Assembly (NCBI GenBank): GCA_964387845.1
Contig: CAYLXA010000002.1
Location: forward strand, 32,001-96,000
Reading direction: 5' to 3'
Source of the DNA: an uncultured bacterium
GTDB lineage: Bacteria > Omnitrophota > Omnitrophia > Omnitrophales > Abzuiibacteriaceae
DNA length: 64,000 nucleotides
Each line of letters opens with the position of its first letter. The stretch's first letter is position 1. Below, piece by piece: positions 1,396 through 50,395 of this stretch. The notes beneath the pieces are model-generated. The model was given only the letters and a program-made list of their open reading frames with translations, searched no databases and was not told where the DNA came from. A program made the translations under genes and the position numbers.

Positions 1396-1419
1396 ATTAA
1401 CATTGAAGAAAGGAAAAGA

Positions 1420-4376: not shown

Positions 4377-5560
4377 TGATTAAATATCATTTAGCTAAAG
4401 ACACAATTGATGAAAAAGATATTCAGGCACTGATTGAGTGGCTTAAATCCTACCCACGGCTCACGAAAGCAAATCTCACGCTTCAATTTGAAGAGCGGTG
4501 GAGCAAATGGCTTGGAAAGAAATATTCAACCTTCTGCAATTCCGGCTCATCCGCAAATTTGTTGATGTATTACGCGCTGCTAAGTTCCAAAAAGCTTAAA
4601 AATAAAAAAGTCGTCGTACCGACTGTTGGATGGGTGACCACCATTGCGCCTGCCATTCAATTCGGCTTTGAGCCGATCATGTGTGAAGCTGATCCCGACA
4701 CTTTTGGCCTTGATTTGGGTCATCTGGAAAAACTTCTCAAGAAGCACAATCCCGGCACGGTAGTGTTGGTACAGGTGCTCGGCGTTCCTCATAAAATGGA
4801 CGAAATTTTGGCGCTTAAGAAAAAATACGACTTCTATTTGTTGGAAGATGCCTGCGCTTCAATCGGTTCCACATATCACGGTAAAAAAATTGGGCAGTTC
4901 GGTGATATGGCAAGCTTTTCGTTCTATTTTGGACATCAAATGTCAACCATCGAAGGCGGTATGGTATCGACGGACAATAAAGAGTTTCAGGATTTATTAT
5001 TGATGCTTCGAAGCCATGGCTGGAGCAAGGATTTAGACGCAAAGACTCATGATGCGCTCGTTGAGCAATATAAAATTGATGACTTTCATACGCCCTTTGT
5101 TTTTTATGAGCCGGGGTTCAATTTGCGCTCAACCGACCTCAACGCATTTCTGGGGCTTCGGCAATTGGACAAGCTCGATTGGATGATTTCGCGGCGTGAT
5201 GAAAATCATAAGCTCTATTATAAACTCTTGGCAAATCAGTTTTACGCTCAGAAATATGCGGATCCAAAAGCAAATGTTTCAAGTATCTCATTTGGTGCTT
5301 TGGCCGCTGATCCGGAAGAGCGGCGCAAGGTCGTGAAGGCTTTGGTGCAGAACGGGATTGAAACCCGGATTTTTTCGGCAGGAAATCTAGGTTTGCATCC
5401 GTTTTGGTATAACCGATACGGAAAAGCGAGCTTTCCGGTTGCCGATAAAGTACACCATTGCGGATTTTTCCTTCCAAATCATCCGTCGCTTGCGACGAAA
5501 GATGTTGAATTTGTGGCGCAGGTAACCTTGGATGCGGTATGCACGGGAAAATCCTCGTAA
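4376..5560 (+). CDS. DegT/ColD/E1-family PMP-dependent sugar 3-dehydratase, with His replacing the catalytic Lys
   Basis: DegT-fold ORF. The ATG at 4376 overlaps the upstream TAA (TAATG); the track's longer start at 4301 is unlikely. The conserved SFYFGHQMSTIEGG segment has His where aminotransferases carry the Schiff-base Lys. The 394-aa size matches ColD-type dehydratases. Confidence 0.65.
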   Translation: MIKYHLAKDTIDEKDIQALIEWLKSYPRLTKANLTLQFEERWSKWLGKKYSTFCNSGSSANLLMYYALLSSKKLKNKKVVVPTVGWVTTIAPAIQFGFEPIMCEADPDTFGLDLGHLEKLLKKHNPGTVVLVQVLGVPHKMDEILALKKKYDFYLLEDACASIGSTYHGKKIGQFGDMASFSFYFGHQMSTIEGGMVSTDNKEFQDLLLMLRSHGWSKDLDAKTHDALVEQYKIDDFHTPFVFYEPGFNLRSTDLNAFLGLRQLDKLDWMISRRDENHKLYYKLLANQFYAQKYADPKANVSSISFGALAADPEERRKVVKALVQNGIETRIFSAGNLGLHPFWYNRYGKASFPVADKVHHCGFFLPNHPSLATKDVEFVAQVTLDAVCTGKSS

Positions 5561-6468
5561 CCGGCGGCACAGGTCTTTTGGGATCAGCGCTTCAAAAGCA
5601 GTGTCCGGATGCGGTTTATGTTGGAAGTAAAGATTATGACTTGAGACGGTTTGATGAGGCTGAGAGGATGTTTGGCGAAATAAAACCAACCCGCGTGATT
5701 CATCTTGCGGCCAATGTGGGTGGGGTGAAGAAAAACGCGGAGCAAAATGCCACACTTTTCTCGGACAATGTTTTAATCAACACCAATGTGATTGAGGCTG
5801 CAATTCAAGGCGGTGTTAAGCGGTTGATTTCAATTTTATCCAGCTGTTGTTTTAAAATTTATCCGGACAAGCCGTCAACAGAGAGCGATTTGCATGAAGG
5901 TGCGCCGTTTGCCGGCAATTTGGGCTATGGTTATGCAAAGCGAATGCTGGACATCCATAGCCGCTTAGCGTGGGAGCAGCATCGGCTGCAGTTTTCATCG
6001 ATCACTCCAGCGACAATGTATGGGCTTAACGATAACTGGGATCTAGAAAGCGGACATGTGGTGGCTGCGTTAATCCGCCGGACGTTTATAGCGAAAGAAA
6101 GGGGCGAGCCGTTGACTGTTTGGGGAAGTGGAAATGCTGTCCGCCAATTTGTCTTAGCAGATGATGTCGCGAGGCTGCTTTTAGAGGAGATTGATACGTT
6201 TGATGGCCCCGACAATATGATCGTAGCACCGGATTCGGGTGTCTCGATACGCGATTTAACAAGCATGATCGCGGAGCTGATGAATTTTAAAGGAGAAATT
6301 ATTTTTGACCAGTCGAAACCGGAGGGACAATTAAAGAGAGTGTTGATCAGTGAGAAATTTAAAAAGCGGTATCCCGAATTTAGCTTTACACCGCTTCGCA
6401 GCGGCTTAAAAATGACCATTGATTGGTTTCTCAAAAACTATAAAACAGCAAGGGTTTTGAAGGTGTGA
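5539..6468 (+). CDS. GDP-L-fucose synthase-like 3,5-epimerase/4-reductase (SDR)
   Basis: LVTGGTGLLGSAL Rossmann motif. SSCCFKIYP and GYGYAK motifs parallel Fcl SSCIYP / YAIAK. Confidence 0.7.
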   Translation: MHGKILVTGGTGLLGSALQKQCPDAVYVGSKDYDLRRFDEAERMFGEIKPTRVIHLAANVGGVKKNAEQNATLFSDNVLINTNVIEAAIQGGVKRLISILSSCCFKIYPDKPSTESDLHEGAPFAGNLGYGYAKRMLDIHSRLAWEQHRLQFSSITPATMYGLNDNWDLESGHVVAALIRRTFIAKERGEPLTVWGSGNAVRQFVLADDVARLLLEEIDTFDGPDNMIVAPDSGVSIRDLTSMIAELMNFKGEIIFDQSKPEGQLKRVLISEKFKKRYPEFSFTPLRSGLKMTIDWFLKNYKTARVLKV

Positions 6469-6469
6469 C

Positions 6470-7516
6470 ATGATTATTAGCCGAACCCCTTTTCGTGTTT
6501 CTTTTTTAGGCGGCGGAACCGATTACCCCGGTTGGTACCGTGAGCATGGCGGAGCCGTGTTGGCGACAACCATTGATAAGTACTGCTATATTACTTGCCG
6601 CTATCTACCCCCATTTTTTGAGCATAAAAGCCGCATCATGTATTCCAAAATCGAGTGCGTTCAGTCCAATAAAGACATCGAACATCCCTCTGTGCGGGAA
6701 ACTTTGAAATATATGAATATCCAAGAGGGGATTGAGATTCATCACGACGGCGATTTGCCTGCCCGCGCCGGTTTGGGATCAAGCTCTGCTTTTACAGTGG
6801 GATTATTGAACGCGCTTTATGGCCTTAAGCGTAAAATGTCGTCTAAAGAAGATTTGGCAAAGGAAGCGATTCATGTGGAAAGAGATCTCCTGAGCGAGAA
6901 TGTGGGATCTCAAGATCAGGTACAGTCGTCGTTTGGCGGTTTGAATCACATTGAATTCCTCAAAAACGGACAATTTAACGTTTTTCCGATTGTTTTGAAG
7001 CATGAGCGCCTTCAAAGTTTTCAAGATCATCTTTTGCTGTATTTTACGGGTTTCTCGCGTTTTGCTTCAGACATTGCAAAAGAGCAAATTGATTCGATTG
7101 CGAAAAAACAAAATGAGCTTAAAGCGATGGGGCAAATGGTTGGTGAAGGCCTCAAGATTCTTACGGGTGACGCAAGCTTGTTGGAATTTGGAAAATTGCT
7201 GCATGAAAGCTGGACATTGAAGCGGAATTTGACTAACCGGATTTCAACACCTGCCATTGATCAAATTTATGAAGAAGCGCGGAGGGCAGGCGCCGTGGGC
7301 GGAAAGCTGCTCGGGGCCGGCGGGGGCGGTTTCGTTCTTTTGCTGGTTGAGCCCGGTAAACAGCAAAAAGTAAAGGATGTGCTGCAAAAATTATTGCTGG
7401 TCCCGTTTCAATTCGAAAACACGGGAACGCAGGTTGTTTTTTACCGCCCTCCCAAGGAAAGTACCGAAATGAGTTGGTTTAAGTTCCAAAAGGAGCGGGA
7501 AGCTTCGCAAAAGTGA
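6470..7516 (+). CDS. GHMP-family sugar kinase, D-glycero-D-manno-heptose 7-phosphate kinase (HddA)-like
   Basis: N-terminus PFRVSFLGGGTDYP plus GHMP ATP-binding motif GLGSSSA. The C-terminal GGKLLGAGGGGF segment is HddA/fucokinase-like. Confidence 0.7.
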   Translation: MIISRTPFRVSFLGGGTDYPGWYREHGGAVLATTIDKYCYITCRYLPPFFEHKSRIMYSKIECVQSNKDIEHPSVRETLKYMNIQEGIEIHHDGDLPARAGLGSSSAFTVGLLNALYGLKRKMSSKEDLAKEAIHVERDLLSENVGSQDQVQSSFGGLNHIEFLKNGQFNVFPIVLKHERLQSFQDHLLLYFTGFSRFASDIAKEQIDSIAKKQNELKAMGQMVGEGLKILTGDASLLEFGKLLHESWTLKRNLTNRISTPAIDQIYEEARRAGAVGGKLLGAGGGGFVLLLVEPGKQQKVKDVLQKLLLVPFQFENTGTQVVFYRPPKESTEMSWFKFQKEREASQK

Positions 7517-8238
7517 ACAAACGCCTGACCGATCCAGCACACATTGACGTGTTAATTATTTGCGGAGGGCTGGGGACGCGCCTCCGTTCTGTCGAGCCCG
7601 ATGCGCCCAAAGGCATGGTTGTTATTGAAGGAAAACCGTTTCTTGAAATTCTGATTGATCATTTGCGTCATTCCGGTTTTCGGCGTTTTATTCTCTGCAC
7701 CGGTTACGGCGCCAAACGTTTTCGGCAGCATTTTGAAGCGGCCAAACAGTCAGAAATTATATTTTCCGAAGAAGTAAAGCCGCTGGGCACGGCCGGAGCT
7801 GTCAAGCAAGCCGAAAAACTCATAAGCAGCGATCAGCAGTTGGTGTTAAATGGCGATTCTTTGTGCTTGGCGGATTGGCAGGAGCTATTACGCTTTCATG
7901 CATCGCATCAGGGGTTGGCAACGCTTTTGGTAACTCAGGACCGAGAGCGAACGGATGTGGGCGGAATCAAGTTTGATCACAACTTCGGCGTAACGCAATT
8001 TAAAGAAAAGGAAAAAGAATCGACCCCATATATTAATGCGGGTATTTATATTTTTGAGCGCCGGTTATTGGAATTGATTCCGAAAAATCAAAAAATTTCT
8101 TTGGAGGAACAAATTTTTCCAAAGCTGAACGAAACCCAACTGTTTGCTTGCGTATCATTAGCAACTGTGTATGATATTGGAACGCCCGAACGTTTAGAGA
8201 AATTTAAACAACTTTATTCTGCAGGAAAATTCAATTAA
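7513..8238 (+). CDS. sugar-phosphate nucleotidyltransferase, heptose-1-P guanylyltransferase (HddC)-like
   Basis: GTG start. LIICGGLGTRLRS…PK motif of NDP-sugar pyrophosphorylases. Overlaps the kinase by 4 nt. Confidence 0.7.
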   Translation: MNKRLTDPAHIDVLIICGGLGTRLRSVEPDAPKGMVVIEGKPFLEILIDHLRHSGFRRFILCTGYGAKRFRQHFEAAKQSEIIFSEEVKPLGTAGAVKQAEKLISSDQQLVLNGDSLCLADWQELLRFHASHQGLATLLVTQDRERTDVGGIKFDHNFGVTQFKEKEKESTPYINAGIYIFERRLLELIPKNQKISLEEQIFPKLNETQLFACVSLATVYDIGTPERLEKFKQLYSAGKFN

Positions 8239-8243
8239 ACGAT

Positions 8244-9794
8244 ATGGTTAATACAAAAAATAAACTTGATGTCTTGCTCATTAATCCTGGCAATTTGATC
8301 CAGGTTTACCAAACGCTGGGACTCAATATTTCTGCTATCGAGCCGCCGGTTTGGTCCGGGTTGATGGCCACTTTCGTTCGGCGCAAAGGCTGTTCCGTTC
8401 AAATTCTGGATGCTAACGCCGAGAATCTGACCCCTGCTCAAACTGCGCAAAAAGCGCTTGAGTTGAAGCCGCTTCTGATCGCTGTTGTTGTTTACGGACA
8501 TCAACCGTCGGCTTCGACGCAAATTATGCCGGCGGCAAGTTCAATTTGCTCCGCGATTAAGGCGCAAGACCCAAGCCAAAAGGTGTTTTTGGTTGGCGGG
8601 CATGTCTCGGCGCTGCCTGATCGGACGCTGAGCGAGGAAAGTGCAGATTTTGTGTCGAGCGGCGAGGGGCCGCACACGCTTTTAGAGTTAATTGAGGCGC
8701 TGAAAGCCGGCGGCTCCGAAAATTTAAAGAAGGTTCGCGGATTACTTTATAAAGAAAACGGGAAAATTCAGTTCAACGCACCGGCACCACTCGTCAAAAA
8801 CTTGGATGAAGAAATGCCTGAAATGGCCTGGGATCTTTTGCCTATGGAAAAATACCGGGCGCACAACTGGCATTGTTTCGGTCATTTAGATAAACGCGCG
8901 CCTTATGCTTCGTTTTATACCACGCTCGGGTGTCCGTATCACTGCACTTTTTGTTGTATTCAGTCGCCTTACAAAACCGGAGAAAAAGAGTCTGGTTTGA
9001 AGGAGGAGATTAACAGCTATCGCTTCTGGAATCCCAAAACGGTTGTCGATCAAATCGGAAAATTAGTCAACGAATACGGAGTCCGCAATATTAAGATCGC
9101 AGACGAGATGTTTGTTCTCAATGCGCGTCATGTATTTGGTATTTGCGATTTGATCATTGAGCGCGGTTATGATTTGAATATTTGGGCGTATGCACGCATT
9201 GACACAATTAAGGACAATATGCTGGACAAATTAAAGCGTGCGGGTGTGAACTGGCTCGCGTTTGGCATCGAGTCGGGTAGCGAGCGTGTCCGAGATAATG
9301 TGGACAAAGCGTTTGACCAAGAGGACATTCGCAAAGTAATTCAAAAAGTGAAAGATGCTGGTATTAACATCATCGGAAATTATATCTTCGGGCTACCGGA
9401 AGATGATATGAATTCAATGAAAGCCACTCTGGATTTAGCGCTCGAACTTAATTGCGAATTTACCAACTTTTATTGCGCGATGGCGTATCCCGGGTCTCCT
9501 TTGTATCAGCAGGCTATCCGTGAAAAATGGGCATTACCAAAAGCCTGGAGCGGTTATTCTCAGCATTCGGTCGATATGCTTCCGCTTGCCACAAAACACC
9601 TCCCGGCTTCTGACGTTATTCGGTTTAGAGACCAGGCATTTGAGGTTTATTTTAAATCACCTAAATATTTAGAGATGGTGCGCCAAAAATTCGGCGAAGA
9701 AACTTTAAAACATATCCAGGCAATGCTTTCACATCAGCTTAAACGACAATTCGTTTCTTCAAGCACGTCAAAAACCTCATCGCAAAAGAGTTGA
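8244..9794 (+). CDS. B12-binding (class B) radical SAM enzyme
   Basis: N-terminal cobalamin-binding Rossmann-like domain. CPYHCTFC gives a CX3CX2C radical SAM motif. 516 aa. Confidence 0.75.
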   Translation: MVNTKNKLDVLLINPGNLIQVYQTLGLNISAIEPPVWSGLMATFVRRKGCSVQILDANAENLTPAQTAQKALELKPLLIAVVVYGHQPSASTQIMPAASSICSAIKAQDPSQKVFLVGGHVSALPDRTLSEESADFVSSGEGPHTLLELIEALKAGGSENLKKVRGLLYKENGKIQFNAPAPLVKNLDEEMPEMAWDLLPMEKYRAHNWHCFGHLDKRAPYASFYTTLGCPYHCTFCCIQSPYKTGEKESGLKEEINSYRFWNPKTVVDQIGKLVNEYGVRNIKIADEMFVLNARHVFGICDLIIERGYDLNIWAYARIDTIKDNMLDKLKRAGVNWLAFGIESGSERVRDNVDKAFDQEDIRKVIQKVKDAGINIIGNYIFGLPEDDMNSMKATLDLALELNCEFTNFYCAMAYPGSPLYQQAIREKWALPKAWSGYSQHSVDMLPLATKHLPASDVIRFRDQAFEVYFKSPKYLEMVRQKFGEETLKHIQAMLSHQLKRQFVSSSTSKTSSQKS

Positions 9795-10978
9795 CTCAGT
9801 CGCGATCAACGCAGAAGCAATGGATAGTTATCGGCGGCGGCATTATTGGCACCGCGGTTGCCCTGGCTCTTGCTAAGCGCAAAGCTGGCTCAATCTTAAT
9901 TCTAGAGAAAGAATCTTCGCTCGGGCTTCATCAAAGCGGTCGCAACAGCGGTGTCATTCATTCCGGGATTAATCAAAAACCCGGAAGTTTGAAAGCAAAA
10001 ATGTGCGTTGAGGGCAGCCGGCGCTTGCGAGAATATTGCAGACAGCGGCGGATTGTGATGAATGAATGTGGGACTTTAGTGATTGCGCGTCATGCCGAAG
10101 AGCTGGCAACCCTAGACCGTCTTTTAAAAATGGGTGTCGAGTGCGGCGTTGAGGGGTTGATGTTAATCGGCCGCGATGAATTGATTGAGCGGGAACCGAT
10201 TGCCAAAGGCGATAGTGCTCTTCTGTCTCCCTCAGGCGCAACCGTTGATTCTGAAATGCTCCTCAAATCTCTTGCGCAAGATGCGCGCGAGGTCGGTGTT
10301 GAGTATAAAATGGTCCATCGCGTTTTAAAAATCGAAGGAAATACGGTCTATACCAACCAAGGGAGTTTCAACGCCGAATACATCATTAATTGTGCGGGGC
10401 TTTATGCAGATGAAATTGCGCATATGATGAACGCAGGGAGAGGTTATCGGATTATTCCATTTCGCGGCGAGTATATGGAAGTCAAAAATTGCGATGTGAA
10501 ATCAATGGTTTATCAGGCTCCTGATCTCCGGTTTCCGTTTTTGAGCATTCATTTAACCCGGGAAACGGACGGAAGAGTGCTTGCCGGGCCTAGCGCAGTT
10601 TTGGCGTTTGGCAGGGAAGCATATGAGAAGGAATGGGATTGGCGTGAAATGGGCCGCATGTTTACTAGTATGCAATTTTTACGGATGGTTATCAGACCAG
10701 AGTTTGTGCAGCTAGCTTCCGAGAATTTGAAAACATCGCTATCAGCAAATAGTTTTTTGGAGCAGATTCAGTCTCTGGTTGCAGGTGTAACGCAAGAACA
10801 GATTGTGCCGCATCGGGCCGGAATCCGAGCTCAGATGGTGGATCAAAGCGGTAAATTGGTTGATGATATTTTGGTGGAACATCAACCGTCGGCAACGCAT
10901 GTGCTGAATGCAGTATCTCCCGGAATGACGTGCAGTCTGGCATTTGCAGACTATTTAGCGGGGCAAATTTTAAATTAG
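9791..10978 (+). CDS. FAD-dependent oxidoreductase (L-2-hydroxyglutarate oxidase LhgO-like)
   Basis: TTG start overlapping the previous stop. The WIVIGGGIIGTAVA dinucleotide-binding motif immediately follows. LhgO/DAO-family architecture. Confidence 0.7.
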   Translation: MTQSRSTQKQWIVIGGGIIGTAVALALAKRKAGSILILEKESSLGLHQSGRNSGVIHSGINQKPGSLKAKMCVEGSRRLREYCRQRRIVMNECGTLVIARHAEELATLDRLLKMGVECGVEGLMLIGRDELIEREPIAKGDSALLSPSGATVDSEMLLKSLAQDAREVGVEYKMVHRVLKIEGNTVYTNQGSFNAEYIINCAGLYADEIAHMMNAGRGYRIIPFRGEYMEVKNCDVKSMVYQAPDLRFPFLSIHLTRETDGRVLAGPSAVLAFGREAYEKEWDWREMGRMFTSMQFLRMVIRPEFVQLASENLKTSLSANSFLEQIQSLVAGVTQEQIVPHRAGIRAQMVDQSGKLVDDILVEHQPSATHVLNAVSPGMTCSLAFADYLAGQILN

Positions 10979-11002
10979 TGAGATAGTTAACGAGTGGCTT
11001 GT

Positions 11003-11968
11003 ATGAAAAAAATTTTAATCTGCGGCGGAACTGGTTTTATCGGCAGGAATTTGGTTGAGTATTTTGTCAAAAAACCAGATTTTGAAGTTTACGCAACTTG
11101 TTACAAGCGTCGTTCTCCCTTAATTCCAAAGGCTAAATTTAAGCGTATTGATTTAACAAATGTTGTGCAAGTTCAAGAAATTGTGAAGGGGATGGATGTT
11201 GTGGTTCAAGCCGCTGCCACAACCTCCGGCGTAAAGGATACGATTGAGGCGCCTTATGTGCACGTTACAGATAACGCCGTAATGAACTCCTTGATTTTTC
11301 GAGCGTGTTTCGAGCAAAAGGTGAAACACGTGATCTTTTTAAGCTGTACCGTGATGTATCCGAATCAGGAGGCGCCAGTTTCGGAAGAAGATATGAATTA
11401 TCAAATTACGGATAATTATTTTGGTGTCGGTTGGACAAAAGTTTACCTCGAGAAAATGAGCCAATTTTATTCGCGAATCGGAAGTGCTAAATATACCGCG
11501 ATTCGGCATTCCAATATTTACGGCCCTTATGATAAGTATGATCTTGAAAAATCACACGTTTTTGGCGCAACGGTTGCGAAAGTTGAAACTGCCAAGGACG
11601 GCAAAGTTGTGGTCTGGGGCACGGGCGCCCAAGAGCGCGATCTTTTATATGTGGATGACCTGTCCCGGTTTATTGATTTGGCAATTGAAAAGCAAACTGA
11701 AAAGTTTGAGCTGGTTAATGTTGGTTACGGAAAAAGCATTTCAATTGCTAATCTGGTCCAGTTGATTATTGACCGCTCCAAAAAGAATTTAAAGATTGAG
11801 TATGATCATTTAAAGCCTTCGGTTAACTTCAAGTTGGTTCTGAATATCGACCGCGCAAAGCGCATTTTTGGCTGGGAGCCGCAGGTGCCGCTTGAAGAAG
11901 GAATTGAAAGGAGTCTTGCGTGGTATCGAAAACATATTCAACCAATGTCTGCCGAAAAGATTAAATGA
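11003..11968 (+). CDS. NAD-dependent epimerase/reductase (second Fcl-like SDR)
   Basis: ICGGTGFIGRNL motif. An LSCTVMYP segment lies where Fcl has SSCIYP. The alternative start is 10994. Confidence 0.7.
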   Translation: MKKILICGGTGFIGRNLVEYFVKKPDFEVYATCYKRRSPLIPKAKFKRIDLTNVVQVQEIVKGMDVVVQAAATTSGVKDTIEAPYVHVTDNAVMNSLIFRACFEQKVKHVIFLSCTVMYPNQEAPVSEEDMNYQITDNYFGVGWTKVYLEKMSQFYSRIGSAKYTAIRHSNIYGPYDKYDLEKSHVFGATVAKVETAKDGKVVVWGTGAQERDLLYVDDLSRFIDLAIEKQTEKFELVNVGYGKSISIANLVQLIIDRSKKNLKIEYDHLKPSVNFKLVLNIDRAKRIFGWEPQVPLEEGIERSLAWYRKHIQPMSAEKIK

Positions 11969-14019
11969 AAAGCAAATTAATTTGCGCTGCCGTATTAGTG
12001 GCGCTGATTGTGATTTCATTTTACACCTACCGCTCCGGTGTCATTTCCGTGCCTCGCTCCGATCACTATGGGTTTATGGCGGAGAGGGAATACGCAGTTT
12101 CGGATACCGAGTTTTTGTTGAAGCAGTTGGTCTATAACCGGACCCGCGTCATCGCAAAGGGTGATTCTTTTTTGTTCAGGCCCGGAATGACCGGCACGCT
12201 CGCGCTTTTGGATATTTTTTTTCGGCATAATTTGTATGCGCTTGGCGCTTTCAGTATCCTCGCGCATGCTTTGACGGCTTTTTCATTGTTCTTATTGCTG
12301 AGTTTGTTTTTAAGGCGCTCTTTTGCGTTTATCCTATCCGTTGTATTTGCCACGCATCTGGCAGGTTTTGAAATGGTTTTTTGGCGCCATATCAGTCCTT
12401 ACATGTTTTGCCTGGTTTTTGTAGGATTGGCATTGTACGCGCTTGGCCGCTGGCTTCAGCCGCCCGAAAATCGAAATTGGCTTTTATTATTTTCATTCTG
12501 CCTTTTTTTATCTTCACTATTTCACGAAGTTGTTTTGCCGGCGATGGTTATCTTCTGTCTTTTATTTTTAGTTCTGCATTTTCAAAATCAATCAACGAAT
12601 CCATCTTATTTTAAATCATTGTCAATCGCGTGCCTGGTCCCGCTGGCTGCTAATTTGCTGCTCAACGTCGCTGGCCGGATCGCTTTTAGCAGCCAGGCCA
12701 ACCTGTTATTGAGTGATGCGGCGCAACCGGCAAGCGTTGCTTACGCCTCAAAATTTTTAAGCCACGCGGTTTACGTCGGGGGCCTGATTATCACTGCCTT
12801 TTTGGCGCCGAGCATCATTCGTTTCTCATTTATTAATTTGGATTTTCGGGCGGAGTGGGACTTTCTCAAAATTCCAGCGCCTGTTTTTTACACCGCCGGT
12901 TTTATTTTTCTTACATTGATCGCAGGGGCGTTAATTTATCTATATATTTTCAGAAAAAAGCTCGGTCAGCGACAGCTTTTTCCGATTTTTGCATTCGCGG
13001 GAATATTTTTGATTGTCACTTTTTTGGGACTAACGGTCGGGAGGGCCATTCCGCGCTCAATCGGTTATTTGAAAAACTCCACCTATTATTTCTATCTAAC
13101 CAATTACGCCCTTACAATCATCGTTGCTATGGGCTTGAGAAAAATCAGCAGCTTACCGTATAAAAATTTAAAAATCGGATTAGTGTTTTTCCTGCTCTGT
13201 GTTGCCGGTTATCAGATTAAAAGCGGTATTGCGGGAATCGAAAAGGCAATCAATGCTCGAGGTGATTACGATAAACAAATCGCTTCCAAAACACTCCGGG
13301 TTTGGTCAGAATTAAGCAAGCATCCGGAATATTGCTATGGTGGGACCGGGGCCGAAAGAGTTTCAAGCTTTGTGCCCAATGTTCTGCTGTACCGAAGGTC
13401 ATGCAATGCTTTCCCGGACAAAATCCCGCTCTATTTGCTCGAAAACGAAAAACGCGAACTTTGGTTTATGCAGTTGATTCCTGAGCAGATTGATCAGCAG
13501 GCCTATCGTTATGGGCAGATCAATAATGAGGGGCAAGCCGAGTTTTCCGCTCAATCAACCGATAACCAGCTCAGTTTTAGCGGTTTTTCTCTTAGCAATG
13601 CCGTCCATCATCCTATTTATTACGGCGCCCGGCTTCATGGGGGATTTGTCGGAGGTTTGGTATTTAACTATCACGACCCCGCCAATTTTTCAATCTTAGT
13701 GGCAAATGAACGTTACACTTATGTGCAATTTAACGAGAATGGAAACCCCTCGGAACCGTCGTATGTGGCGCAGCAGATTTTAGATCCGATCGCTTTTGAT
13801 TTGTCGATTCGGAGAATCGGCGGCAGGTATGTTGTATTCTATAACCGGACTTTGCTTGCAGTGATCAATGATGCTGTTTCCGAGGGACGAGTGGGGCTTT
13901 ATCGGAAGCCCCGTCATTCAGCAGGCGAGTATTTTACCGACGTGGTCTTGATTGATGCTTCAGAGGCCAAACAATCGCAGATGGGTGCTTTTGAACCTGT
14001 TTTTCAATTTCAATTTTAG
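11965..14019 (+). CDS. large polytopic membrane protein with a ~250-aa C-terminal soluble beta-rich domain (GT-C-like?)
   Basis: 684 aa. About 10 predicted TM segments in the first ~430 aa, then a hydrophilic C-terminal domain. 4-nt overlap with the upstream gene. Confidence 0.6.
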   Translation: MKSKLICAAVLVALIVISFYTYRSGVISVPRSDHYGFMAEREYAVSDTEFLLKQLVYNRTRVIAKGDSFLFRPGMTGTLALLDIFFRHNLYALGAFSILAHALTAFSLFLLLSLFLRRSFAFILSVVFATHLAGFEMVFWRHISPYMFCLVFVGLALYALGRWLQPPENRNWLLLFSFCLFLSSLFHEVVLPAMVIFCLLFLVLHFQNQSTNPSYFKSLSIACLVPLAANLLLNVAGRIAFSSQANLLLSDAAQPASVAYASKFLSHAVYVGGLIITAFLAPSIIRFSFINLDFRAEWDFLKIPAPVFYTAGFIFLTLIAGALIYLYIFRKKLGQRQLFPIFAFAGIFLIVTFLGLTVGRAIPRSIGYLKNSTYYFYLTNYALTIIVAMGLRKISSLPYKNLKIGLVFFLLCVAGYQIKSGIAGIEKAINARGDYDKQIASKTLRVWSELSKHPEYCYGGTGAERVSSFVPNVLLYRRSCNAFPDKIPLYLLENEKRELWFMQLIPEQIDQQAYRYGQINNEGQAEFSAQSTDNQLSFSGFSLSNAVHHPIYYGARLHGGFVGGLVFNYHDPANFSILVANERYTYVQFNENGNPSEPSYVAQQILDPIAFDLSIRRIGGRYVVFYNRTLLAVINDAVSEGRVGLYRKPRHSAGEYFTDVVLIDASEAKQSQMGAFEPVFQFQF

Positions 14020-14043
14020 TTATGCGGTAGTGAGGTGTGTGTG

Positions 14044-15963
14044 ATGATTTTGTTTCCGGTTTTATTATTTGCGGCTTTGGTTCTGATTTTAAACGGCCAT
14101 CCGCAATTTCGAGTCAATGAACGCGATGATTGGCGTTATCAAACGGGTCTTGCATTTGTTGTGACGGGCGTCATCGCGGTTGCTGCGATTGAAGTGTTGA
14201 GCGTTTTTTCTGCGCTTACACAAAAAACCGTTGGCGTGACATGGGGAGCGCTGCTGTGCGTTGCTCTGTCTGTTTGGTTTTTTGGTTATCGAAAAACTCA
14301 GATCCTGCCTTCGATTTCCGGTTTTTCAGGTTTATTCTTAGGGCTTTTGTCCGGGATTTTTTTCCTCGTAATTATTACGAGCGTTGTTGCTCTTTTGGCT
14401 CCGCCCAATACATGGGATTCGCTGACGTATCACATGAGCCGGGTCGCGCATTGGGTCCAAAATAGAAGTGTCGGACACTATCCAACCAACATTTTAAGGC
14501 AATTGTATCATGCGCCAGGAGCCGAATTTATGATCTTGCAAGCCCAGCTCTTGAGCGGAGGCGACCGCTTTGCCAATATGATTCAATGGAGTTTTTATAT
14601 CGGCTGTGTTCTCACCAGTTCTTTGCTGACAAAGCAATTTGGATTTGACCGGTGGGCACAGCTGCTGACCGCGGTTTTTGCGTCAACGCTCCCGATGGCG
14701 ATTTTACAGGCTTCAAGCACGCAAAACGATCTGGCAGCCTCGTTCTGGCTTCTTGCAGCAGTTGTGTTTCTTCTGAGGCTGCAGAATCAATTTAATTGGA
14801 CAGATGCGTGCGGTGCCGGTGCCGGTATTGGGCTTGCGTTTCTGACAAAATCACTATCCTATGTTTACATTATTCCGTTCATAGCGTGGTTTGCTTGGGC
14901 TTGCGTCAGAAACAGGCAGTGGGGAAAGTTGTCAAAAACTGCGGCGTTAATTGCTGCGCTGGTTATCGTGATTAATCTGGGCCACTGGTCGCGCAATTTC
15001 GTACTTTTCCATCATCCGCTAGGGCCAATAAAAACAATAGATTTAACCAACGAGAAATTCGGCGTCCGGCCCGTGTTGTCTAACATAATTCGGGGCGCTG
15101 CCTCGCACGCGAGCTTTCCGATCATTGGTATTAACCACGAGCTGACCAAATGGATTTATGCGTTCCACCGTTCGCTTGGCATGGATGCCAATGATCCGAA
15201 GACAACCTATGATCCTAATTTTGGAAAATTTCAAATCCGTCCGCTTCACGCCCATGAAGATTCAGCGAGCAACCCCATTCATTTTTGGCTGATTGTGATT
15301 TGCGGGATTATTGCGCTGCGCAGGCGCGAGACTCGAAAAGAGCCAAAATTTATATTTTATCTTGCATCGGTCATTGCTGCCTTCCTGCTAATTTGCATTA
15401 TTTTCAAGTGGCAAGTGTGGATCAGCCGTTTGCAGCTGCCTCTTTTCTTTTTTTGGGCACCTGTGGCGGGTTCAGTGCTGTCTTTGATGAAAGCAAAAAG
15501 CGTATCTGGCGCAGTTGCCGTTTTTTTGCTGGTCAGCTCACTTTATTCAGCTTTCTTTAATTTTTCTCGGAGTTTTTTTAAGTGGCCTTTTGTTGACAAT
15601 ATGCCGCCCACTGTTTTTGAAGCAGGACGTGACATGCTGTATATGAATAACGGGGCTAACATTGTGAAGCTTTCATATTTACTTGCAACAAAACATATTG
15701 AATCGAAGCGCTATAAGAATGTCGGACTTATTGTTCATGAGGATGACTGGGAATATCCGTACTGGGCGATACTGCAAGCCAATCGGAATGCGATCCGGAT
15801 TGAACATATAGAAGTGGCGAATATATCGAGTAAAATAAAAAGAAAGCCTTTTCGGCCGGATGTTGTTATTGCATCAAAGCCAACGGATGGGCAAATCCGA
15901 CGCTATGAAGCCGAGTATGGTTCCGGCGAACAGATGGGAATTTTGTGGGTTTTTGGCCGGTAG
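14044..15963 (+). CDS. polytopic GT-C-type membrane glycosyltransferase (ArnT/PMT-like)
   Basis: ATG at 14044 preceded by GAGGTG. Many TM helices. Early loop PPNTWDSLTYHMSRVAHW resembles the GT-C acidic loop. Soluble C-terminal ~150 aa. Confidence 0.6.
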   Translation: MILFPVLLFAALVLILNGHPQFRVNERDDWRYQTGLAFVVTGVIAVAAIEVLSVFSALTQKTVGVTWGALLCVALSVWFFGYRKTQILPSISGFSGLFLGLLSGIFFLVIITSVVALLAPPNTWDSLTYHMSRVAHWVQNRSVGHYPTNILRQLYHAPGAEFMILQAQLLSGGDRFANMIQWSFYIGCVLTSSLLTKQFGFDRWAQLLTAVFASTLPMAILQASSTQNDLAASFWLLAAVVFLLRLQNQFNWTDACGAGAGIGLAFLTKSLSYVYIIPFIAWFAWACVRNRQWGKLSKTAALIAALVIVINLGHWSRNFVLFHHPLGPIKTIDLTNEKFGVRPVLSNIIRGAASHASFPIIGINHELTKWIYAFHRSLGMDANDPKTTYDPNFGKFQIRPLHAHEDSASNPIHFWLIVICGIIALRRRETRKEPKFIFYLASVIAAFLLICIIFKWQVWISRLQLPLFFFWAPVAGSVLSLMKAKSVSGAVAVFLLVSSLYSAFFNFSRSFFKWPFVDNMPPTVFEAGRDMLYMNNGANIVKLSYLLATKHIESKRYKNVGLIVHEDDWEYPYWAILQANRNAIRIEHIEVANISSKIKRKPFRPDVVIASKPTDGQIRRYEAEYGSGEQMGILWVFGR

Positions 15964-16031: not shown

Positions 16032-17042
16032 ATGATTCAAATCGGTGTAATCGGATGCGGGCAATGGGGGCCTAACCATATCCGCAATTTTACCAACTTA
16101 GAAGATAGCCGCGTGGCTGCCTGTTCCGATTTAGACTCAGTACGTTTAACCGCCATGTCAAAGCTTGTGAAGGGTATTGAAACCACGCGGAATTACCGAG
16201 ACATTCTCCACAACCCGCGCATTGACGCAGTGGTGATCTCCACTCCGGCTGCGCTTCATTACAAGATTGCGAAAGAAAGCCTATTAGCGGGCAAGGACGT
16301 GCTCTGCGAAAAACCGCTTTGCACCAAAGTTAGCGATGCGATCAAGCTGACGGAGCTTGCAAAAAAGCTCAAAAGAGTGTTGATGGTCGGGCATGTTTTT
16401 GTATTCAATCCGGGTATCCGAAAGTTAAAAGAACTGATTCAGAAGAAAAAATGCGGGCGCGTATATTATTTACATTCTGAACGGACCAACCTTGGGCCGT
16501 TCCGGCGCGATGTGAATGCAGTGTGGGATTTGGCCTGCCACGACGTTTATATTTTTAATTACTTACTGAATAGTTTTCCGATCGAGGTTACCGCGCGCGG
16601 AGGAAAGTATCTTCAGAGCAAAATCGAAGACGTTGCCTTTATATCGATGACTTATCCGAGCGGTGTTTTGGTGAACATCCATGTCAGCTGGCTGGATCCC
16701 AAAAAAATCAGGCAAATTACCGTCGTTGGAAATAAATCCATGATTACCTGGGATGATTTGGACAATGTCGGCCCGATTAAAATTTACGATAGCCAGGTTG
16801 TGCACAAGTATTACTACGAAACTTTCGGTGAATTTGCGCTGTTGGCGAGGGAAGGTGATATCACGATTCCTAAAATCGCGCTGCAGGAACCTTTAAAGAT
16901 CCAAGATTCCCATTTTTTGGAATGCGTTCAGAAAAGAAAGCAGCCCGCGGCGGATGGTGTTGCCGGTATCCAAACGGTAAAGGTGCTTACGGCCATTCAG
17001 AAATCTCTGGCAAAGCGGGGCAATCCGGTACGCGTCGGATGA
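16032..17042 (+). CDS. Gfo/Idh/MocA-family NAD(P)-dependent sugar oxidoreductase
   Basis: IGVIGCGQWGPNH Rossmann N-terminus. EKP motif (CEKPL). 336 aa. Confidence 0.8.
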   Translation: MIQIGVIGCGQWGPNHIRNFTNLEDSRVAACSDLDSVRLTAMSKLVKGIETTRNYRDILHNPRIDAVVISTPAALHYKIAKESLLAGKDVLCEKPLCTKVSDAIKLTELAKKLKRVLMVGHVFVFNPGIRKLKELIQKKKCGRVYYLHSERTNLGPFRRDVNAVWDLACHDVYIFNYLLNSFPIEVTARGGKYLQSKIEDVAFISMTYPSGVLVNIHVSWLDPKKIRQITVVGNKSMITWDDLDNVGPIKIYDSQVVHKYYYETFGEFALLAREGDITIPKIALQEPLKIQDSHFLECVQKRKQPAADGVAGIQTVKVLTAIQKSLAKRGNPVRVG

Positions 17043-17776
17043 AAGCGCTCATCATTGCGTGTGCCTATAATGAAGGTGTCAAATTTGAAGCCACGTGCGA
17101 TCGAATCGCGGCTTTTCTGAAAAAACGTGATAAAAGCCGTGTCGTAATTGACGTTCTTGTTATCGATGATGCTTCGAGCGATTCCGCGCCTAAGCAATCG
17201 GCATCCAAGCACGGATTCCCGTATTTACGAAATGAAAAGAGAAGCGGTATCGGTTTCTCAATTCGGCGCGGCTATGAATTTGGTATTCAAAAACAGTACG
17301 ATATCTTGATCACAATCGCGGGAAACAACAAGGACAATCCCGATGAATTGGATCAATTGATTGAACCCATTGTCAGCGGGAAAGCGGATTTTGTCCAAGG
17401 ATCCCGGTATTTGGCGGGCGGAAATTATGGTAACATGCCGTTTTATCGGCTTATTACGACACGCTATGTCCATCCTTGGCTATTTTCTTTGGTGGCGGGC
17501 AGGCGGATTACGGATACAACTAACGGTTTCCGGGCCGTGAAAAACTCAGTTTTGAAAGATGTTCGGATTGATTTGCGGCAAGACTGGTTGGATCATTACG
17601 AACTGGAACCCTATTTATTCTGCCGTGCAATACGGTTGGGTTTTCGTATTGCAGAGGTTCCGGTGACCAAGATTTATCCTGACAGAAAGTTAGGTTATTC
17701 TAAAATGGCTCCCATCACGGGTTGGTGGAGTATTTTGAGGCCTCTGGTGTATCTATTTTTTAATTTAAAAAAATAA
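17039..17776 (+). CDS. family-2 glycosyltransferase (Dpm1-like)
   Basis: ATG at 17039 overlaps the previous TGA (ATGA). IIACAYNEG…VIDDASSD is a GT2 DxD region. The longer track ORF from 16922 lies inside the upstream gene. Confidence 0.7.
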   Translation: MKALIIACAYNEGVKFEATCDRIAAFLKKRDKSRVVIDVLVIDDASSDSAPKQSASKHGFPYLRNEKRSGIGFSIRRGYEFGIQKQYDILITIAGNNKDNPDELDQLIEPIVSGKADFVQGSRYLAGGNYGNMPFYRLITTRYVHPWLFSLVAGRRITDTTNGFRAVKNSVLKDVRIDLRQDWLDHYELEPYLFCRAIRLGFRIAEVPVTKIYPDRKLGYSKMAPITGWWSILRPLVYLFFNLKK

Positions 17777-20700: not shown

Positions 20701-21001
20701 CGAGCAAATCAGATTTACGGAAGAGTTGCTTGAAATGTACCCGAAACATGTGGCGCTTTATGAAATGTTGGGAAATCTTTATCAAAATAACCATCAGCGC
20801 GATGACGCGGAAAAAATTTATTTAAGGATGATTCAAGAGTTTCCCCTGGAGCCCAACAGTTATTTGCAGCTCGGCATTTTATACGGCAAGACGGGCTCAA
20901 TGATGAAAGCAAAAGAGCAGCTCAAGAAGGCTGTACGCTATGATCCGGAACTGTTAAAAAACCCTGAAATTCAAAAAGTACTTCAGTATAAAGGTGCCTA
21001 A
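17777..21001 (+). CDS. fused polytopic membrane domain / spermidine-synthase-like aminopropyltransferase domain / C-terminal TPR repeats
   Basis: 1074 aa. About 12 TM helices (aa 1-480). The central segment VLTIGLGSGSTV…DVIISEPSNPW…GIVCQWL matches the SpeE fold motifs GGGDG…D(S/P)xDP. The last ~300 aa are TPR-like repeats. Confidence 0.7.
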   Translation: MISETTSPLPNIKTSMRPRTLSLLVLSFFFVSGACGLMYQVVWLRVMGLVFGNTTYATSAVLSGYMAGLGLGALCFGKWIDKPSAGDPVKLYGIMEGGVGAYALLTPFIWYFIDWINIVFYRAFNPEFLQFSLFKFAVSFVFLFIPTFLMGGTLPVLSKFYIEHRDQIAHKVGILYALNTAGAVLGVIFSGFFCLYYFGVWQTTVLTAVLNLLIFAACWFWIKGNAAGASALPPEIAVQELPAPSKSQPNAYYTTLLVLFGISGGVSMMYEIGWTRILAIVVGSSIYAFSVMLSTFLLGIALGSFLFSWLSKRIKIDLSIFATLQAATALFAFLGMNQFEEMPYRFLKLYHWSKHTPFLIELGRFALCTIVMLGPTICIGAMFACFIHLYHQQERLGGDIGTAYFANTVGTIFGSALTGFLIIPILGIYKTLMAAAGLNAAIGAIAFMMSLPNRQLRRTIAFSVVFVFTWVGASLARPWNKSVITSGAVVRPNMHNANSQEEFIRSMENRLNLFYKEGTSATVSVNRVRDVISLAVNGKTDASNGTDAFNQFLLGHLPMLLNPDAQKVLTIGLGSGSTVAAVASYAVKQIDCVELEAAVVEGARFFSELNRNVLNDPRLRMIVNDGRNYLKINPTLYDVIISEPSNPWMAGVANLFSREHYETMKARLAPQGIVCQWLHAYSMSDQDMRMIIRTFTLVFPNTSLWTSNYPDLLLLGSNEPIEIDYLELKKSFNRPEVLQDFEPYGIKTADGFLGAFWLDDEALRSFSEGARINSDNYPYLEFSAPRHLYDDTVSSNYHLINAFASKQYPKIKNLNPPIDQNIEFHVNIARSNFYRKIYGRVQSELDFIKELDPKNPDLIEILGMVQYEMGNFTDAERLLSESLIQNPDSPETHFYFGLIQQRKKRHENAIFSFGEAIQLDSRAAKYYIALGDSLMEMNAFVSAVDAFDQALIYSPAKFDLLIRKASALSRIVPINEQIRFTEELLEMYPKHVALYEMLGNLYQNNHQRDDAEKIYLRMIQEFPLEPNSYLQLGILYGKTGSMMKAKEQLKKAVRYDPELLKNPEIQKVLQYKGA

Positions 21002-21954
21002 TGGAAAAGTTTAACTATGCGCTGAGTGTTATCGTCCCATTTTTCAATGAAGAACAATCATTGCCGGGAATTATAAAAGGTGCGCAAGCAGTTTTGAGCC
21101 ATTTTTCACAGCAAAGCGAAATCATTTTTGTAGATGACGGCAGTGCGGATGCGGGTATTCAGATTGTCAAAAATGAGGCCAAATCAGATAAGCGTATTAA
21201 ATTGGTAGCGTTCAAAAAAAATTTCGGGCAGACCGCTGCCTGGGCTGCCGGTATTGATCATGCCAAGGGTGACGTTATTGCATTTTTGGATGCGGATTTA
21301 CAAAATGACCCGGCAGACATTCTGATGCTTGCAAAAAAACTTGGCGAAGGTTTTGATGTTATCAGTGGCTGGCGGAAGGACAGAAAGGATAGTCTCTTAA
21401 CGAGGCGCATTCCGTCACAGATCGCAAACTGGCTGATTTCAACCGTTACGGGTGTGCATTTGCATGACTACGGATGCTCTTTGAAGCTCTATCGCGCCGA
21501 AATTTTACGCGGCGTAAAGCTTTATGGAGAAATGCACCGCTTTCTGCCTGCTTACGCGGCTTGGGAAGGTGCGCGGATCACTGAAGTAATCGTCAATCAC
21601 CAAGAGCGGCGGCACGGTGTAAGTAAATACGGATTAGGAAGAATTTCAAAAGTAATCCTGGATCTCACGACCGTTTCTTTTCTGGGCGGTTTTGCGACAA
21701 AGCCTATTTATTTCTTCGGGCGGCTCGGTTTTGTGCTATTCCTTCTTGGTTTGGCGACCTTAGGCCTAGTGGCTTATCGTGTTTTGATTTTACAAAATAA
21801 AGAAGCAACGCCTGCGGTCTTTATGATGGTCGTATTTTTCATCTCTTCAATTCAGCTGATTTTAATGGGGTTGCTTGCTGAAATGGTGATGCGGGTTTAT
21901 CACCAAGGCCAGGAGAGGCCGGTTTATCGGATTTCAGAAAAAATCAATTTTTAA
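21001..21954 (+). CDS. family-2 glycosyltransferase, ArnC/GtrB-like polyprenyl-phosphate sugar synthase with C-terminal TM helices
   Basis: SVIVPFFNEE…FVDDGSAD…DADLQ motifs. Two C-terminal hydrophobic helices as in ArnC/GtrB. Confidence 0.75.
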   Translation: MEKFNYALSVIVPFFNEEQSLPGIIKGAQAVLSHFSQQSEIIFVDDGSADAGIQIVKNEAKSDKRIKLVAFKKNFGQTAAWAAGIDHAKGDVIAFLDADLQNDPADILMLAKKLGEGFDVISGWRKDRKDSLLTRRIPSQIANWLISTVTGVHLHDYGCSLKLYRAEILRGVKLYGEMHRFLPAYAAWEGARITEVIVNHQERRHGVSKYGLGRISKVILDLTTVSFLGGFATKPIYFFGRLGFVLFLLGLATLGLVAYRVLILQNKEATPAVFMMVVFFISSIQLILMGLLAEMVMRVYHQGQERPVYRISEKINF

Positions 21955-26956: not shown

Positions 26957-26963
26957 CTAGGGA

Positions 26964-30762: not shown

Positions 30763-31134
30763 TTGAGACCCCAGCAGTTGGTTTTGGCAGCCGAGCAGGC
30801 CGCTGACGATAAAAAGGCCGAAAATCCGGTTGTCTTAGACCTTCGGAAATCAACGGCCGCTGCCTCCTATTTTTTGATCGTCAATGGTACCTCCGATCGT
30901 CATGCGCGTACGATTGCCGAAAATGTGATCGACGAGCTCGGCAAGAAGGGCGTCAAAGCCTGGCATACAGAAGGTATGCGGGAAGGCCGTTGGATTTTGA
31001 TCGATTTCGTGGATTTGGTGGTGCATGTGTTTCATCACGAAACAAGACGGTTTTATGACCTCGAACGGCTTTGGGGAAAACCTGTAAAACCTGCGGCCCC
31101 GAAAAGGAAAAAGAGAAGTGCGAGAAAGCGTTAA
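30763..31134 (+). CDS. rsfS: ribosomal silencing factor RsfS (Iojap family)
   Basis: TTG start. Colinear with E. coli RsfS (…LDL…SDRH…IVHVF…LERLW). Confidence 0.75.
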   Translation: MRPQQLVLAAEQAADDKKAENPVVLDLRKSTAAASYFLIVNGTSDRHARTIAENVIDELGKKGVKAWHTEGMREGRWILIDFVDLVVHVFHHETRRFYDLERLWGKPVKPAAPKRKKRSARKR

Positions 31135-48495: not shown

Positions 48496-48515
48496 TTCGT
48501 GATGAGTTGTTATTT

Positions 48516-49496: not shown

Positions 49497-49497
49497 C

Positions 49498-50394: not shown

Positions 50395-50395
50395 G

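Follow-up and report, generated by a model that had tools for sequence, protein, structure and literature searches.

Two adjacent membrane proteins in an Omnitrophota envelope-glycan cluster as probable GT-C-fold glycosyltransferases

The locus considered here lies in a window of 64,000 nucleotides from an uncultured Omnitrophota bacterium (contig CAYLXA010000002.1) and raises the question of what two adjacent genes for large membrane proteins, set directly behind a sugar pathway, encode. ArgRS neighbours also make Omnitrophota the probable taxon. The proteins, termed A and B below, are quite probably inner-membrane glycosyltransferases of the GT-C fold, forming part of a large envelope-glycan cluster in a Gram-negative organism and transferring sugars in the periplasm by the steps proposed further on. 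Both open reading frames are present as the sequence-only reading described them:

Gene A: 11965..14019, + strand, 684 aa, ATG start; GT-C-fold membrane protein and predicted glycosyltransferase, of a family without a curated model; C-terminal region predicted to be periplasmic.
Gene B: 14044..15963, + strand, 639-aa GT-C glycosyltransferase of the ArnT/PMT_2 type; a GTG at 14035 could also serve as start.

In the sequence ATGA, the start codon of gene A overlaps the stop codon (TGA) of the SDR gene before it (10994..11968), bearing out the 4-nt overlap with the sugar pathway claimed earlier at 11965. The mechanical reading frame of gene B (14035..15963) opens with GTG and gives 642 aa, while public gene calls begin at the ATG at 14044, which has a GAGG ca. 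9 nt upstream and leaves a 24-nt gap after gene A; the 640 aa given previously is close to both values without matching either. Database homologs exist for both proteins (one 100% identical entry and 12 word-index homologs for A, at least 499 homologs for B), and A and B can therefore be regarded as real genes.

Protein A, judged by the fold of its predicted structure, is a member of the GT-C superfamily, a placement that no curated sequence model supports. The fold of its polytopic membrane domain agrees with that of solved GT-C enzymes, for which 7–13 transmembrane (TM) helices are expected, and in a Foldseek structure search the best matches are all GT-C enzymes, led by STT3A, PglB and AglB. 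In GT-CA enzymes, by definition, the loop between TM1 and TM2 carries two juxtamembrane helices, the first of which (JM1) bears a conserved and catalytically essential Asp at its tip (PMC12041299). In protein A, helices 32-43 and 47-55 follow TM1 (2-21), and D33 (codon 12061-12063), conserved in 96% of 54 diverse family members, occupies the N-terminal tip of helix 32-43, making it the candidate catalytic Asp. A kinked TM3 is a further GT-CA hallmark, and the break at residue 131 in helix 118-139 would fit it, so that a GT-CA rather than a GT-CB core is the tentative reading.

Sequence models give a different picture. Protein A, searched whole or in halves, has no Pfam or NCBIfam match even at E<=10, and neither A nor the 54 family members match PF13231 or PF02366 (PMT_2/GT39/GT83, ArnT-like) at E<=0.1. 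Pfam searches of the 54 members returned only four matches, all sub-threshold and all to PF10131 (PTPS_related), a membrane-protein family of the GT-C clan. Comparison of the A family with the PMT_2 family of protein B by hhalign gave a probability of 15.7%, so that usable residue equivalence between the two is absent. The A-family profile, searched against PDB sequences, found CBM66 only and no GT-C chain, while an exhaustive profile search collected 683 representatives at E<1e-10, some of them through the C-terminal domain alone. The sequence-only reading had seen no recognisable match for protein A; this holds for curated sequence models but not for the fold, which is that of the GT-C superfamily. 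Homology to a Wzy polymerase or a YfhO-type transferase, which that reading had named as examples of a finding that would overturn it, did not appear at profile level: the YfhO family (PF09586) has no profile match in A or in the 54 members, and for a Wzy polymerase or O-antigen ligase there are no Pfam or NCBIfam matches to set beside the uniformly GT-C structural ones. Protein A is thus placed in a GT-C sequence family outside Pfam and NCBIfam coverage, and the module appended to it is of a new type. The parts of the protein, with helices taken from DSSP applied to the AF2 model, are as follows:

Membrane (GT-C) module: 11965..13254, + strand, aa 1-430.
First periplasmic loop (predicted): 12028..12231, + strand, aa 22-89; juxtamembrane helices 32-43 and 47-55, half-helix 73-86.
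Predicted periplasmic loop: 12685..12876, + strand, aa 241-304.
Linker helix (433-451) and small alpha/beta subdomain: 13255..13566, + strand, aa 431-534.
Concanavalin-like beta-sandwich: 13567..14007, + strand, aa 535-681; distant relative of CBM66 and DUF1080 (PF06439).

The membrane region was already recognised from the sequence, although its estimate of about 10 TM helices has to be revised. The AF2 model contains 13 hydrophobic helices before residue 430, and 11 of these probably span the membrane, with the N-terminus inside and the C-terminus outside. The preferred TM helices are 2-21, 90-112, 118-139 (broken or kinked at residue 131), 145-164, 170-186, 190-207, 213-240, 305-331, 339-364, 375-395 and 400-430. 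Across the 54 family members this 11-TM arrangement places 14.2 Lys and Arg of the short loops inside versus 2.8 outside. A 13-TM topology, in which every predicted helix spans the membrane, was dropped, as the same count would fall to 9.6 inside and 7.4 outside and half of the invariant polar residues would come to lie in the cytoplasm. With 11 helices and an external C-terminus, every conserved polar residue would be periplasmic, and so would the CBM-like domain. The family-wide charge statistics likewise support the periplasmic location previously proposed for the C-terminal domain.

The conserved residues predicted to face the periplasm are D33, E40, R72, E136, W140, H187, E188, R360, Y368, Y374 and Y375, and sequence statistics suggest that they are grouped around a single groove. 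The first periplasmic loop carries P30, D33, E40, R72 and P73, the last three conserved at 91%, 98% and 100%, respectively, among the 54 sequences. The predicted periplasmic loop at aa 241-304 begins with a flexible stretch (aa 241-257, pLDDT <50), followed by the amphipathic helix 258-280, whose hydrophobic moment of 1.02 is the highest among the hydrophobic helices, and a beta-hairpin at 285-300; its conserved residues are G273, P282 and W298.

The hydrophilic C-terminal region (aa 431-684, 254 aa) confirms the soluble domain of about 250 aa described earlier and is composite. Its description as beta-rich applies to the sandwich at ca. 535-681, but a linker helix and an alpha/beta subdomain come before it. 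The alpha/beta subdomain contains a Cys pair, C457/C480 (YCYGG...C), conserved at 93-94%, and together with the linker it also occurs in family members that lack the sandwich; in many members of 480-540 aa the profile match stops at about position 510. The structure search which the sequence-only reading had suggested for this region identifies the sandwich as CBM66/DUF1080-like: it superposes on CBM66 and DUF1080 structures and has remote profile similarity to them, while the C-terminal domain alone gives no Pfam match, to PF06439 or otherwise, even at E<=10. Being sub-threshold in Pfam and missing from ca. 60% of the family members listed, the sandwich is accessory. CBM66 is the C-terminal module of the Bacillus subtilis levanase SacC (PDB 4azz, 4b1l, 4b1m), and PF06439 is the DUF1080 or 3-keto-disaccharide hydrolase family. 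In these relatives the sandwich belongs to a glycoside hydrolase or secreted protein, whereas protein A joins it to a membrane transferase, and nothing points to fructan as the ligand of the A module.

Protein B, which the earlier reading had called GT-C-like, is a standard ArnT/PMT_2-type GT-C enzyme. It matches PF13231 above the gathering score, has an ArnT-like fold and carries an invariant Asp, D125 (codon 14416-14418), at the start of helix 124-140, the first juxtamembrane helix. Compared with ArnT (GT83) and PMT_2 (PF13231, GT39-like) enzymes, B carries three further TM helices at its N-terminus, ahead of the canonical TM1, and a 130-aa C-terminal alpha/beta domain, and its acceptor need not be lipid A. 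Protein A has no sequence membership in the ArnT/PMT_2 group.

The surroundings of the two genes hold candidates for the donor side of the reaction, along with a third GT-C gene:

AglJ/dolichyl-phosphate-hexose-transferase-like GT2: 691..1395, + strand, 234 aa; Pfam GT2.
Nucleotide-sugar synthesis and modification genes: 1420..11968, + strand, upstream of A and partly conserved beside A homologs.
GFO/IDH/MocA oxidoreductase (16032-17042) and second AglJ-like GT2: 16032..17776, + strand.
ArnC-like polyprenyl-phosphate glycosyltransferase, GT2: 21001..21954, + strand, 317 aa.
Third GT-C gene: 23872..25812, - strand, 646 aa; weak PMT and PMT_2 matches, convergent with the operon.

Counted together, the AglJ/ArnC-like GT2s of this one cluster number three and its GT-Cs at least three. 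The first GT2 (NCBIfam AglJ 3.9e-21 and DPhHxTase 4.2e-18, both below cut-off) is the candidate synthase of the polyprenyl-phosphate-sugar donor of A. The genes that follow it encode SDRs, TPP E1 alpha and beta subunits, an RfbH/PseC-like PLP enzyme, an HddA-like kinase, an HddC/ManC-like nucleotidyltransferase, a B12-radical SAM enzyme, an FAD oxidoreductase and an Fcl-like SDR. Downstream of B, the second AglJ-like GT2 truly starts at ATG 17039, in an ATGA overlap, and has 245 aa; the block it forms with the GFO/IDH/MocA gene is kept with B-type GT-C genes in two other loci (L001, L002) and may supply the donor synthase of B. The ArnC-like GT2 (NCBIfam NF007986 8.3e-61, below cut-off; Pfam GT2 3.9e-31) is the third candidate for a lipid-sugar synthase in the cluster.

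Comparison across lineages ties A to this setting, at least for its closer relatives. In L001, L002/L003 and the Leptospiraceae locus L007, the A homologs have as neighbours counterparts of the GT2 at 691 (45-52% identity), of the SDR at 10994 (61-77%) and of the radical SAM, GHMP and NTP genes. An AglJ/DPM-like GT2 and a shared set of sugar-modification genes thus go with A homologs in three lineages. Distant family members (L010-L012) lie outside glycan clusters, which limits the link between A and this sugar pathway to the closer relatives.

Taken with the fold and the topology statistics, the co-occurrence with AglJ/ArnC-like GT2s suggests that A uses a polyprenyl-(di)phosphate-linked donor at the extracytoplasmic face, and the locus likely encodes a periplasmic glycosylation system with a polyprenyl-phosphate-sugar donor, donor and acceptor both being putative. 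In the proposed mechanism, the operon pathway would produce a modified nucleotide-sugar, the sugar of which the AglJ/DPM-like GT2 (691-1395) would transfer, on the cytoplasmic side, to polyprenyl phosphate. The resulting lipid-sugar would then be flipped across the membrane; no GtrA-, SMR- or MATE-type flippase was recognised among the Pfam results for positions 1-26000. In the periplasm, A would move the sugar onto a glycan acceptor, with D33 as the putative catalytic base and conserved Arg, His and Tyr residues holding the phosphate, while its CBM-like module may bind the acceptor polymer by analogy with the CBMs of GT136 ORF12, EmbC and AftD. Protein B would handle a second sugar in like manner, its probable partner being the block of GFO/IDH/MocA and GT2 genes that directly follows it. 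Both the three-component logic and a GT-C enzyme with an acceptor-binding C-terminal CBM have a precedent (PMC11127046). A more specific proposal, which we regard as tentative, is that the A family forms a so far unclassified GT-C family at CAZy level, with several hundred clusters at 50% identity, all annotated as hypothetical. Its founding function in this Omnitrophota-like lineage would then be to move, in the periplasm, a deoxy(amino) sugar of unusual make-up, branched and C-methylated and produced by the adjacent TPP-E1/B12-radical-SAM/FAD-oxidase pathway, from its polyprenyl-phosphate carrier to a surface glycan, the CBM66/DUF1080-like module recognising the acceptor.

The closest known system is GT136, represented by ORF12 of Citrobacter youngae O1. 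ORF12 is the GT-C component of three that together carry out periplasmic pentofuranosylation; when described, it too lacked sequence similarity to existing GT families, and its partner, a polyprenyl-phosphate-sugar synthase, is encoded nearby (PMC11127046). The comparison covers architecture and the pattern of conserved residues. ORF12 and A are of similar size (652 and 684 aa) with 11 TM helices each (predicted in A). In both, TM1 is followed by a small helical domain in the periplasm with a catalytic Asp (in A a candidate) near residue 31-33, and the last TM helix by a C-terminal beta-rich CBM or CBM-like domain. The essential or conserved residues of ORF12, D31, E34, Y35, H106, H174, E176, R349 and Y350 (PMC11127046), find a counterpart alike in kind and order in D33, Y35, E40, H101, H187, E188, R360 and Y368 of A. 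The two differ in that the closest sequence relative of ORF12 is said to be ArnT, to which, as to PMT_2, the A family has no significant profile match, and in that the ORF12 CBM is described as Ig-like whereas that of A is a ConA-like CBM66/DUF1080 sandwich behind an extra alpha/beta subdomain. A PRPP-derived pentofuranose donor is unlikely here, as the cluster showed no synthase of the phosphoribosyl-transferase type. The mycobacterial GT-C arabinosyltransferases EmbA/B/C and AftD also have periplasmic CBMs, but they are much larger, their CBMs belong to different families and the A family has no sequence relationship to them.

With regards to the acceptor, A might instead be a PMT-like protein O-glycosyltransferase, passing the polyprenyl-phosphate sugar to Ser/Thr of secreted or envelope proteins and not to a polysaccharide, which we consider unlikely though the strongest of the alternatives. 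Less probable still is an oligosaccharyltransferase, ligase or polymerase (PglB/STT3-like, or functionally Wzy/WaaL-like) with an oligosaccharide donor linked to polyprenyl diphosphate in place of a single sugar on a monophosphate. The leading Foldseek matches, STT3A, PglB and AglB, agree with this and likewise have a C-terminal periplasmic domain; however, that domain is mixed alpha/beta in STT3/PglB against the ConA-like sandwich of A, the WWD motif is absent from the A sequence, none of the 54 members has a Pfam STT3, Wzy_C or O-antigen-ligase match, and the cluster is rich in DPM/AglJ/ArnC-like GT2s, which make monophosphate donors. That A is no transferase at all, its GT-C-fold part serving as a scaffold or lipid-binding module (cf. 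PIG-U/GAB1) and its DUF1080-like domain as a functional hydrolase or lectin, is very improbable, as conservation peaks at canonical GT-C positions (D33, E40, R72, E188, R360) and not in the sandwich, which many members lack altogether.

Periplasmic sugar transfer by A and B would turn two hypothetical membrane proteins of a poorly known, uncultured phylum into testable enzymes of periplasmic glycosylation. With a curated model of the A family, envelope-glycan clusters could be annotated better in Omnitrophota, Acidobacteriota, Leptospiraceae and Desulfovibrionaceae. A GT-C enzyme fused to a CBM66/DUF1080-like domain adds a further case to an emerging pattern of acceptor-holding CBMs on GT-Cs (Emb, AftD, GT136). 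Were the branched-sugar transfer reading true, a DUF1080-type domain would for the first time have a role assigned in the synthesis of glycans and not in their degradation. The GT-C type itself is already well known, and the assignment of A and B is a useful annotation that challenges no current concept.

A few minor observations concern the distribution of A. YfhO genes adjoin the A homolog in L002 as separate, distinct proteins. The window opens, at its left edge, within a membrane ORF that was considered as a paralog of A and is not one. Searches by tblastn gave no match in phages and one partial match in plasmids, a "hypothetical protein" of Solidesulfovibrio magneticus.

The two long forward-strand ORFs claimed by the sequence-only reading are both present in the ORF listing and translations, and they are real genes, because each has homologs in the databases. 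The first (11965–14019, +) encodes a 684-aa protein, here called A, and its start codon overlaps the stop codon of the upstream SDR gene (10994–11968), the ATG and TGA being shared in an ATGA. The longest ORF of the second, encoding protein B, starts with a GTG (14035–15963, +; 642 aa), with public gene calls placing the start at ATG 14044 (639 aa), preceded by a GAGG ca. 9 nt upstream. A and B are two GT-C glycosyltransferases of a glycan cluster, which is known biology, and the earlier observation of the pair was correct and useful. B belongs to the PMT_2/ArnT-like family.

Neither Pfam nor NCBIfam gave a match to A, whole or as either half, even at E ≤ 10, and a word-index search returned 13 relatives, none of them named. 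An exhaustive profile search with the A family retrieved 1251 representatives at E < 1e-3, with 683 at E < 1e-10 and 144 at E < 1e-30. Just one relative came from an annotated record, a Solidesulfovibrio magneticus plasmid, where its label reads "hypothetical protein". PF10131, a membrane-protein family of the GT-C clan, gave sub-threshold Pfam matches in just 4 of 54 diverse full-length A-family members. Using Foldseek, A matched STT3A, PglB, AglB, ArnT, AftA and DPY19 at E 3e-6 to 1e-4 and is therefore a GT-C-fold protein; on its predicted structure it falls within the definition of a GT-C enzyme. A carries GT-CA hallmarks in three respects, following the definition of the AftB structure paper (PMC12041299): juxtamembrane helices 32–43 and 47–55 between TM1 and the next TM, D33 at the tip of the first of these (near-invariant, 96% of 54 sequences), and a kink at residue 131 of helix 118–139. 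Membership of PMT_2/GT39/GT83 fails by sequence (Pfam and comparison of the A and B family profiles, 54 members), as does that of YfhO (A and the 54 members), while Wzy or O-antigen ligase identity is matched by neither profiles nor fold. A is a representative of a GT-C sequence family without a curated model, the novelty being one of annotation.

Topology models of A were compared by Lys + Arg counts in short loops only, across the 54-member alignment. An 11-TM model places 14.2 of these residues inside and 2.8 outside. In a 13-TM model, in which every predicted helix spans the membrane, the figures are 9.6 and 7.4; that model, which would leave W140, R141, H142, H187 and E188 in the cytoplasm, fits worse and was rejected. 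A is thus predicted to have 11 TM helices, with the short helix 73–86 and helix 258–280 as juxtamembrane elements, the second being strongly amphipathic and having the highest hydrophobic moment (1.02) among the hydrophobic helices. Residues 241–257 form a flexible, low-confidence stretch in the long loop after TM7. With 11 TM helices, all highly conserved polar residues would then lie on the periplasmic face:

Loop 1: D33, E40, R72/P73
After TM3: E136, W140, H142
After TM5: H187, E188
Long loop after TM7: P282, W298
Around the TM9–TM10 loop: R360, Y368, Y374, Y375

The C-terminal region, earlier suggested as possibly periplasmic, is predicted on that same side by both models. A Cys pair (C457 and C480), conserved at 93–94%, is compatible with a periplasmic disulfide. 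The region consists of:

aa 433–451: linker helix
aa ~456–530: small alpha/beta subdomain
aa ~535–681: beta-sandwich

The sandwich matched CBM66 by Foldseek (E 3e-5), and CBM66 sequence against the A-family profile reached E 0.02 across 118 positions. By the A profile, giant proteins of 1,400–3,500 aa (P0046, P0070, P0137 and similar, all from outside the window) carry 6–13 tandem copies of the domain, with P0046, the one checked, showing 13 PF06439 (3-keto-disaccharide hydrolase/DUF1080) repeats by Pfam. By structure the domain is remotely related to CBM66/PF06439, and it stays under the Pfam thresholds; the lectin or glucanase-like module proposed from sequence is therefore correct in kind, as a CBM66/DUF1080-related sandwich. 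In many family members of 480–540 aa the profile match ends at ca. position 510, and the sandwich is an accessory module, because roughly 40% of the 150 A-profile matches listed extend through it. To our knowledge, no CBM66/DUF1080-type module appended to a GT-C has been described.

A lies within a forward-strand operon of ca. 23 kb (691–23875), which, A and B aside, is listed here with a convergent third GT-C gene:

691–1395, +: AglJ/dolichyl-phosphate-hexose-transferase-like GT2
1420–11968, +: nucleotide-sugar pathway genes, upstream of A
16032–17776, +: GFO/IDH/MocA oxidoreductase, then a second AglJ-like GT2 (true start 17039, ATGA overlap)
17777–21001, +: fused MFS/spermidine-synthase/TPR membrane protein, 1074 aa
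Following the fusion, +: ArnC-like GT2
Following the ArnC-like GT2, +: AsnB-type amidotransferase
23872–25812, −: third GT-C gene, 646 aa, weak PMT and PMT_2 matches

The pathway at 1420–11968 comprises three SDRs (one Fcl-like), TPP-dependent E1 alpha and beta subunits, an RfbH/PseC-like PLP enzyme, an HddA-like kinase, an HddC/ManC-like nucleotidyltransferase, a B12-binding radical SAM enzyme and an L-2-hydroxyglutarate-oxidase-like FAD oxidoreductase; whatever NCBIfam matches these gave lie under the equivalog cut-offs. This unusual combination suggests a branched and/or C-methylated deoxy(amino) sugar as product. The MFS/spermidine-synthase/TPR fusion may serve either as a flippase or in polyamine modification. 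The 270-aa C-terminal tail of the third GT-C has no Pfam match. Divergent from the operon and cut by the left window edge, 1–575 (−) encodes the first ~190 aa of another polytopic membrane protein, in which an NLVDHGAFLD loop behind TM1 has a GT-C-like look by eye; the protein has no Pfam match and is unrelated to the A family.

The closest A homologs retain its genomic context. Locus L001 (54% identity) has the gene order 691-like GT2, SDR, A, together with rSAM, DAO, GHMP and NTP genes and a B ortholog, while L002/L003 (34%) carry a 691-like GT2, SDRs, YfhO genes and a PMT_2 gene; a GFO-GT2-MFS/SpdSyn block is common to these loci and the window. In L007 (Leptospiraceae) the A-like gene (25% identity) lies no more than 8 kb from 691-like GT2, rSAM, SDR, GHMP and NTP homologs. 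Farther out in the family, members occur alone or as tandem paralogs, and not in glycan clusters. At L010, tandem paralogs of 682 and 681 aa (1249–5339) adjoin an AI-2E transporter-family gene, with no glycan cluster.

GT-C enzymes use lipid-phosphate-linked donors and are active on the extracytoplasmic face. Bacterial three-component systems divide the work between a GT2-type synthase that loads undecaprenyl phosphate with a sugar, a flippase for export of the lipid-sugar, and a GT-C that transfers the sugar to the glycan on the periplasmic side (PMC11127046). A would be the GT-C component of such a system, and the GT2 at 691–1395 would make its donor using what the upstream pathway produces. 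D33 would act as catalytic base, R72, H101, R360 and Y368/Y374/Y375 would hold the phosphate and sugar, and the CBM66-like module would hold the acceptor polymer. B probably plays the same role for another sugar, partnered with the conserved GFO-GT2 block. Compared by architecture and residue pattern, the nearest functional precedent for A appears to be the GT136 enzyme ORF12 of Citrobacter youngae O1, with 652 aa, 11 TM helices, catalytic D31, a C-terminal CBM that binds unmodified O-polysaccharide, and D31, E34, Y35, H106, H174, E176, R349 and Y350 as essential or conserved residues (PMC11127046).

Beyond the operon, the window encodes an LptD-like protein (44775–47114), sigma-54 and housekeeping genes. 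Downstream of the LptD-like gene is a second sugar-nucleotide cluster (47203–55600, +) with two UDP-glucose/GDP-mannose dehydrogenase-family genes, a 4,6-dehydratase-like SDR and an RmlD-like reductase. Polyamine-type genes at 25802–28415 (−) and 35411–36532 (+), beside the glycan cluster that holds the spermidine-synthase fusion, encode an Orn/DAP decarboxylase, a saccharopine-dehydrogenase-like protein (carboxyspermidine dehydrogenase type) and a deoxyhypusine-synthase-like protein (homospermidine synthase type). An uncultured Omnitrophota lineage is the probable source of the window, judging from its ArgRS (31118–32734, +): the named neighbours of this enzyme, at 52–57% identity, are all Candidatus Omnitrophota MAGs, and the ArgRS on the JGI contig with the 54%-identical A homolog is 73% identical to it.
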